From the NCBI RefSeq assembly GCF_988242995.1, contig NZ_OZ547043.1: a stretch of 64,000 bases of DNA; one strand, given 5' to 3'. Position numbers and translations under genes: made by a program. Below the pieces are notes generated by a model. That model was not told the origin of the DNA. It made no database searches and saw only the letters and a list, made by a program, of their open reading frames with translations. Numbering within the stretch: position 1 is the stretch's first letter; every line of letters starts with the position of its first letter. Shown here in pieces: positions 7,465 through 7,484 of this stretch.

Positions 7465-7484
7465 GTGCCCCAATTTTGGGGCAC
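7465..7484. terminator. Perfect hairpin (7-bp stem, 6-nt loop) between the pgpA and islet-gene 3' ends; candidate bidirectional terminator / islet boundary
   Basis: gtgcccc-aatttt-ggggcac lies between the convergent 3' ends of pgpA (7404) and the 523-aa gene (7581). Confidence 0.4.

Follow-up and report, generated by a model that had tools for sequence, protein, structure and literature searches.

It is established for Escherichia coli that REP elements stabilise mRNA and that stem-loops are the points to which Rho-dependent transcripts are trimmed. Rho-independent terminators have a GC-rich stem of about 5–14 bp, a loop of 3–8 nt and a U-rich tract directly 3′ of the stem, and stand after a stop codon. 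Convergent gene pairs can have bidirectional terminators (SEnd-seq), in which a palindromic stem-loop lies between the two 3′ ends, and collision-driven bidirectional termination that needs a nascent stem-loop has been reported for such pairs in E. coli (bioRxiv 10.1101/2022.10.23.513370). The locus studied here has a described counterpart in O-island OI-26 of EHEC O157:H7, which in strain EDL933 measures 1,983 bp and contains a single ORF, espY3/z0521 (PMC8565820). EspY3 is a described T3SS effector (PMC6313403).

We analysed a 64,000-nt stretch of DNA (contig NZ_OZ547043.1 of assembly GCF_988242995.1; hereafter the window). It is E. coli DNA with thiL and pgpA on the plus strand, an AT-rich ORF on the minus strand and then yajO, dxs, ispA and xseB, also on the minus strand. 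The AT-rich islet between pgpA and yajO is OI-26: it occupies the same locus as the O157:H7 island, with 1,982 vs 1,983 bp and the same single gene (z0521, ECs0472). Our main subject is a perfect palindrome, here called hairpin B, between pgpA and the islet gene. The features of the locus are as follows.

6889..7404, plus strand: pgpA, 171 aa (NCBIfam PRK11068, 1.3e-99; RefSeq annotation of the identical sequence in CFSAN061763)
7401..9382, no strand: the islet, OI-26, 1,982 bp; one gene and flanking non-coding DNA, GC 0.25–0.39
7413..7446, plus strand: hairpin A, candidate pgpA 3′-end hairpin or weak terminator (from its fold and T-tail score)
7447..7463, no strand: AT-rich 17-nt spacer between hairpins A and B, TTGATTTATAAATGAAC (from the sequence)
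7464–7485, minus strand: hairpin B, 9-bp stem and 4-nt loop; provisionally assigned to the espY3 transcript
7504..7532, minus strand: a further stem in the espY3 3′ UTR, tentatively predicted as part of a −41.9 kcal/mol minus-strand fold
7581..9152, minus strand: espY3-like gene, 523-aa pentapeptide-repeat T3SS effector homologue (Pfam Pentapeptide 2.1e-15)
9327..9350, minus strand: hairpin R, candidate yajO 3′-end stem in the right spacer of the islet, without a U-tract
9383..10357, minus strand: yajO, 324 aa, a gene of the backbone whose stop codon forms the right junction

Hairpin B resembles the Rho-independent terminators of E. coli in its GC-rich stem, 4-nt loop, intergenic position past a stop codon and T-rich tail on the espY3 strand, and its stem, loop and placement fall within the ranges given above. 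It differs from the classical members of that class in its short, interrupted U-tract GUUCAUUUAU and in a score lower than those of the classical terminators in the window. Like the bidirectional terminators of convergent pairs, it is a palindromic stem-loop between convergent 3′ ends; unlike them, it has asymmetric flanks, and the locus contains two back-to-back hairpins rather than one shared element. With the REP element that fills the pgpA–yajO spacer of islet-free strains it has in common its position, a stable palindrome and the lack of a strong U-tract, and the two presumably play the same 3′-end role. The REP element is dispersed, however, whereas hairpin B is single-copy, unrelated to it in sequence and part of OI-26. 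Relative to O157:H7, the 176-nt spacer at the left end of the islet is 95–96% identical, hairpin B is identical and the espY3-like gene shows 94.8% nucleotide identity. The window allele encodes the 523-aa form, which RefSeq names only 'pentapeptide repeat-containing protein', unlike the genes of O157:H7 and O145:H28, which are annotated as 'T3SS effector pentapeptide repeat protein EspY3'. Neither OI-26 nor espY3 is new; hairpin B is an ordinary member of a familiar class and is not described in the OI-26 and espY3 papers that we retrieved.

A stable palindrome between convergent genes

Direct reading of the window confirmed gtgcccc-aatttt-ggggcac at exactly 7465–7484, where the original prediction had placed a perfect hairpin. 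The full palindrome, AGTGCCCCAA-TT-TTGGGGCACT, spans 7464–7485 and adds one pair outward and two inward to that first description; at the DNA level it is a perfect 10+2+10 palindrome of 22 nt. The RNA folds into a stem of 9 pairs, 6 of them G-C, closed by a 4-nt loop, and reaches −16.2 kcal/mol on either strand because the stem is a perfect palindrome. Fold z scores for the two strands were −4.7 and −4.9, and 0 of 200 dinucleotide shuffles were equally stable. The pgpA stop codon (7402–7404) lies 60 nt before 7465, and the stop of the 523-aa minus-strand ORF (7581–7583) lies 96 nt from 7484, in agreement with the distances of 60 and about 100 nt first given. Since pgpA runs on the plus strand and the espY3-like gene on the minus strand, hairpin B sits between two convergent 3′ ends, outside coding sequence, again as proposed.

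Hairpins of this kind are not expected by chance at the frequency observed. Counting perfect hairpins whose stem has 9 bp or more and whose loop has 3–8 nt, we found 11 in the window and 1.36 ± 1.16 in shuffles that keep local composition, an enrichment of about 8-fold. At least 5 of the 10 others have T runs beside them. The excess over shuffles suggests that such hairpins, hairpin B among them, are a selected class here. A scan of 7300–9500 against Rfam 15 matched no family, the best hits reaching 15–19 bits against gathering scores of 35–97.

Boundaries of OI-26 and the islet-free allele

A megablast search with 7350–7620 gave matches in islet-free genomes that end at query base 51, which is window position 7400. 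Homology to K-12, Nissle 1917 and C3 stops at 7400, inside the last sense codon of pgpA, and resumes at 9383, at the yajO stop; the islet is therefore 7401–9382, or 1,982 bp. When the islet-free loci (K-12-type, Nissle 1917 and C3) were read directly, CTGGGTATTCT was followed across the junction by GTCGTAG, a 53-bp spacer and then TTATTTAAATCC with the yajO stop. In the window, CTGGGTATTCT is joined instead to TTAATGCC on the left, and GCGAAAT to TTACTTAAATCC on the right. The islet thus replaces the 53-bp REP spacer together with the last pgpA codon of the islet-free allele. It supplies 7401–7404, that is, the last base before the pgpA stop and the stop codon itself, and its right end coincides exactly with the yajO stop codon. 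PgpA has 171 aa, ending in GIL, in islet genomes vs 172 aa, ending in GILS, in K-12-type genomes. The islet-encoded pgpA stop is itself polymorphic: the window has TAA, O157/O145 have TAA with one more A after it, and several lineages have TGA.

GC content falls from 0.56 at 7200–7399 to 0.41 at 7400–7599 and to 0.25–0.29 by 7700–8000, which bears out the proposal that AT-rich DNA begins around the hairpin. Over its first 100 nt the islet is no more than moderately AT-rich, since two GC-rich hairpins lie there.

The original prediction had named a comparison with K-12 as its check. The pgpA–yajO spacer of K-12 is the palindrome GCCTGATGTGACGCTTGTCACGTCTCATCAGGC, which occurs at a median of 18 places per genome and in 5,425 of 5,426 genomes; as a member of a dispersed family, it is a REP-type element. 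Situated between both convergent genes, it has no U-tract (T-tail scores 0.65–0.71). Hairpin B was absent from the islet-free K-12, Nissle and C3 spacers, all read directly, so the condition named as refuting the prediction, an identical hairpin in K-12, did not hold. In a search with its 46-nt context (a bare 22-mer elsewhere would fall below the BLAST threshold), matches came from the islet genomes only, 936 of the 5,426 complete genomes, with one place in each, always on the chromosome and never on a plasmid, and the 64-kb window holds no second copy. Because K-12, Nissle and C3 have a REP element in its place and the single-copy context is confined to islet genomes, hairpin B is cargo of OI-26; it belongs neither to the K-12 backbone nor to the edge of the island.

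Hairpin B starts at 7464, 64 nt inside the left junction at 7400/7401, and this distance removes the suggestion that it marks the point where acquired DNA begins. The idea of an insertion scar fares no better: comparison of 7401–7500 with 9280–9382 revealed no direct or inverted repeats joining the two ends, and hairpin B, itself off the junction, has no partner on the right. The ORF list, RefSeq and the published description (PMC8565820) give espY3 as the sole annotated gene, and no integrase or transposase was found in the islet. A search of the phage collection gave no match, and the only matches in the plasmid collection were two 4.9-Mb records.

The neighbouring yajO–dxs spacer (10358–10411) is dimorphic too. 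The short form, which the window shares with O157 and Nissle, measures 54 nt; the long form of K-12, C3 and strain 24A16CRGN010 measures 179 nt (positions 2587–2765 in one of the loci read) and holds an extra element of about 125 bp containing CCCCAGTCACTTACTTATGTAAGCTCCTGGGG, which we take to resemble an ERIC/IRU repeat.

Age and distribution of the islet

Of complete E. coli genomes, about 17% have OI-26 in the pgpA–yajO spacer and about 83% have the REP allele. Across the five alleles that we compared, islet divergence follows backbone divergence and the junctions are the same. The most distant lineage, 24A16CRGN010, is 95.9% identical to the window over thiL–pgpA, 85.7% in espY3 and 92.0% in the 176-nt left spacer. 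Four further alleles, with EspY3 from 89% to 78% identical, were read in six places, all of them at the yajO–pgpA locus. The position of hairpin B was unchanged in every allele examined, including those with EspY3 only 78–79% identical. Given divergence that tracks the backbone, common junctions and a common locus, the presence or absence of the islet seems to be a dimorphism of long standing and not the outcome of a recent insertion.

EspY3 ranges from 507 to 523 aa across alleles, and the matches of a protein search were all E. coli alleles, the most distant at 76% identity. A search of genome contigs for espY3 outside E. coli yielded two E. coli-like contigs in a Collinsella MAG and a spurious 34% match. 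The two short contigs of this 'Collinsella sp.' MAG (JAIJJM010000929.1 and 965.1) encode EspY3 at 99–100% identity and almost certainly entered the MAG bin as contamination from E. coli. In strain OkiPb01695, a bovine isolate, the annotation treats the espY3-like gene as a frameshifted pseudogene; in strain LR14, IS1A (2501–3384 of the locus, corresponding to about 7546–9390 of the window) replaces espY3 and the last yajO codons, while the first 142 nt of the islet are retained with both hairpins.

Flanking sequences and terminator scores

We compared the two flanks of hairpin B as potential U-tracts. On the minus strand, which is the sense strand of espY3, the stem is followed by the tail introduced above (also written GUUCAUUUAUAAAUC or GTTCATTTATAAATC); on the plus strand it is followed by CTGTTAAAG (also written CUGUUAAAG or CTGTTAAAGTAAAA), a poor tail with 3/8 U. 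A consensus scan called hairpin B terminator-like on the minus strand only, where the tail GTTCATTTAT has 5/8 T. The same scan returned 2 terminator-like sites vs 3.7 in shuffles, so this hit carries little weight. T-tail scores were 2.28 for the minus strand and 1.91 for the plus strand. A d'Aubenton-Carafa-type discriminant, to be read as a relative scale only, gave −4.9 for the minus strand and −11.6 for the plus strand. It was calibrated on other hairpins of the window and on two control terminator sequences: those hairpins that are flanked by T runs, the classical terminators of the window, scored +8 to +41 in their stronger orientation, and the two controls +25 and +28. With a U-tract that is short and interrupted and a discriminant below zero, hairpin B would on this scale rank no higher than a weak intrinsic terminator, and the espY3 strand would be the favoured one.

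The flanks are also asymmetric. Bidirectional terminators elsewhere in the window have symmetric tracts, such as AAAAAGGTGCC..GGCACCTTTTT at 18873, while hairpin B shows no A-tract/U-tract symmetry and its right flank offers no plus-strand U-tract. A terminator shared by pgpA and its convergent neighbour had been part of the original prediction. The terminator-like character and the location between convergent ends stand; as a shared device hairpin B is weak, its U-rich tail lying on the minus strand only. Sharing with pgpA is further undercut by the separate hairpin at 7413–7446, which stands before it. Our literature search returned no transcript-end information for ECs0472/Z0521.

Hairpins A and R

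Hairpin A starts 8 nt past the pgpA stop and pairs ACCGGGaGGT with ACCaCCCGGT across a 14-nt loop, after which comes TTTGATTTAT (or, as otherwise delimited, UUUGAUUUAU). Its energy is −15.7 to −17.5 kcal/mol in the window allele, and its T-tail score is 2.6–3.2 on the plus strand vs 0.2–1.1 on the minus strand. Several lineages carry A7419T, which abolishes the A·A mismatch, and their hairpin A is a perfect 10-bp stem of −19.5 kcal/mol. Hairpins A and B stand back to back, and the 17-nt spacer between them gives a U-rich tail to hairpin A on the plus strand and to hairpin B on the minus strand. Only 1 of its 17 sites (7447–7463) varies among 11 alleles (G7460A).

At the other end of the islet, hairpin R lies 33 nt after the yajO stop, has the sequence UCCCCAUCGUCUGCGAUGAUGGGG and a T-tail score of 0.05. 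Alone it folds at −15.4 kcal/mol; it is part of a −23.4 kcal/mol fold of 9290–9385 on the minus strand (z = −4.0). Its 3′ arm could pair alternatively with CCCAUCAUC at 9309–9317. The right spacer, 9153–9382, which comprises the region upstream of espY3 and the yajO 3′ region, is 97.4–100% conserved even where espY3 is at 85.7%.

Allelic variation at hairpin B

Among the 936 islet genomes, 655 carry the perfect 46-nt context and 263 carry G7479A, with other forms making up about 18. The effect of G7479A depends on the strand: it produces a C·A mismatch in plus-strand RNA (−9.3 kcal/mol) and a U·G wobble in espY3 RNA (−13.2 kcal/mol). In allele L023, G7460A improves the minus-strand tail to GUUUAUUUAU. 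Both changes, each a single event, would be consistent with hairpin B acting in the espY3 transcript. The most divergent allele class combines T7466A and T7477G, which weaken the stem through a U·U mismatch and a longer loop and leave a 5-bp GC core and two outer pairs at about −10.4 kcal/mol. No compensatory double changes in hairpin B were seen among the alleles compared, which are too similar to show covariation. Polymorphism is not lower in hairpin B (3/22 sites) than in the rest of the spacer (15/95).

All four combinations of 7419 A/T with 7479 G/A were found among islet alleles, so this 60-bp part of the spacer must have undergone either recombination or recurrent mutation. Further into the espY3 3′ UTR, the 7504–7532 stem has an A/G polymorphism at 7509, giving G·U vs G-C on the minus strand and A·C vs G-C on the plus strand. 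A TATAAT candidate on the minus strand (about 7518–7523), considered as the −10 box of a short RNA ending at hairpin B, was rejected: it is specific to the window allele (7519 and 7523 vary), has no −35 box and was not called by the consensus scan.

Discussion

The reading that we favour, with a probability of roughly one half, is that hairpin B is the 3′-end stem-loop of espY3, acting either as a weak intrinsic terminator or as an exonuclease stop, and that pgpA is handled mainly by hairpin A. Situated in the espY3 3′ UTR, hairpin B would most likely set the 3′ end of espY3 transcripts. It may do so by one of two routes, as a weak Rho-independent terminator or as a stable stem that halts 3′ exonucleases after termination further on. 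By either route it would limit antisense transcription into pgpA. Transcripts of pgpA would meet hairpin A (7413–7446) and then its U-rich tail, and would be dealt with mainly there. That either hairpin terminates or stabilises RNA is something we infer from sequence and predicted folds.

A related possibility, which we regard as doubtful, is that stem B only protects 3′ ends: Rho or polymerase collision would terminate transcription elsewhere, and exonucleases would trim back to the stem. Transcripts of pgpA might be included, and the role would then be that of the REP palindromes in the islet-free allele. The combination of a strong stem with a poor U-tract on both strands speaks for this, as do the REP palindrome, which likewise serves both convergent genes without a U-tract, and hairpin R after yajO, which also lacks one. 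Against it, the left flank of hairpin B is T-rich on the minus strand (5/8 T), and more so in L023, which fits at least partial intrinsic termination.

Rather unlikely, in our view, is a broader proposal in which OI-26 would be transcriptionally self-insulated cargo, bringing with it a pgpA stop and hairpin (7401–7446) and the hairpins at 7464–7485 and 9327–9350 in place of a single REP element, and in which hairpin B might make use of polymerase collisions rather than a U-tract. If this were true, the dimorphism between REP and three hairpins would offer a natural setting in which to study the insertion of an island between convergent genes without antisense damage.

We give still less credence to a single bidirectional terminator that stops both pgpA and espY3, perhaps aided by head-on polymerase collisions positioned by the stem-loop. 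A perfect palindrome with an equal fold on both strands, between convergent 3′ ends, is what such an element could look like. The plus-strand tail is nevertheless poor (3/8 U) and that strand received no scan call, the symmetry of the 18873 terminator is missing, pgpA transcripts would reach hairpin A, with its better tail, first, and the common G7479A allele cuts the plus-strand stem to −9.3 kcal/mol.

Least probable of all is that palindrome B is a DNA-level site (scar, recombination site or protein-binding operator) or a neutral leftover: a perfect 10+2+10 palindrome close to an island edge, with no covariation and polymorphism that is not reduced, would suit it, but the palindrome lies 64 nt inside the junction with no right-end partner, no other copy in the window and a context found once per genome, the islet, with its single ORF, carries neither integrase nor transposase and matched nothing among phages or true plasmids, an operator would have no promoter nearby to control, and such hairpins are enriched roughly 8-fold in the window, with T runs flanking at least 5 of the 10 others.

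Returning to the favoured reading, in which hairpin B forms the 3′ end of espY3 transcripts, the significance beyond annotation is small, and the results are relevant to studies of espY3 expression and to OI-26 deletions. The exact boundaries of OI-26 are now 7401–9382: the island begins within the last pgpA codon and ends at the yajO stop codon. It supplies the pgpA stop codon and the candidate 3′ structures of both flanking genes, and hairpin B is probably to be assigned to espY3. Deleting OI-26 would thus also take away the putative 3′-end elements of pgpA and yajO; in K-12-type strains it is the REP element that supplies these.
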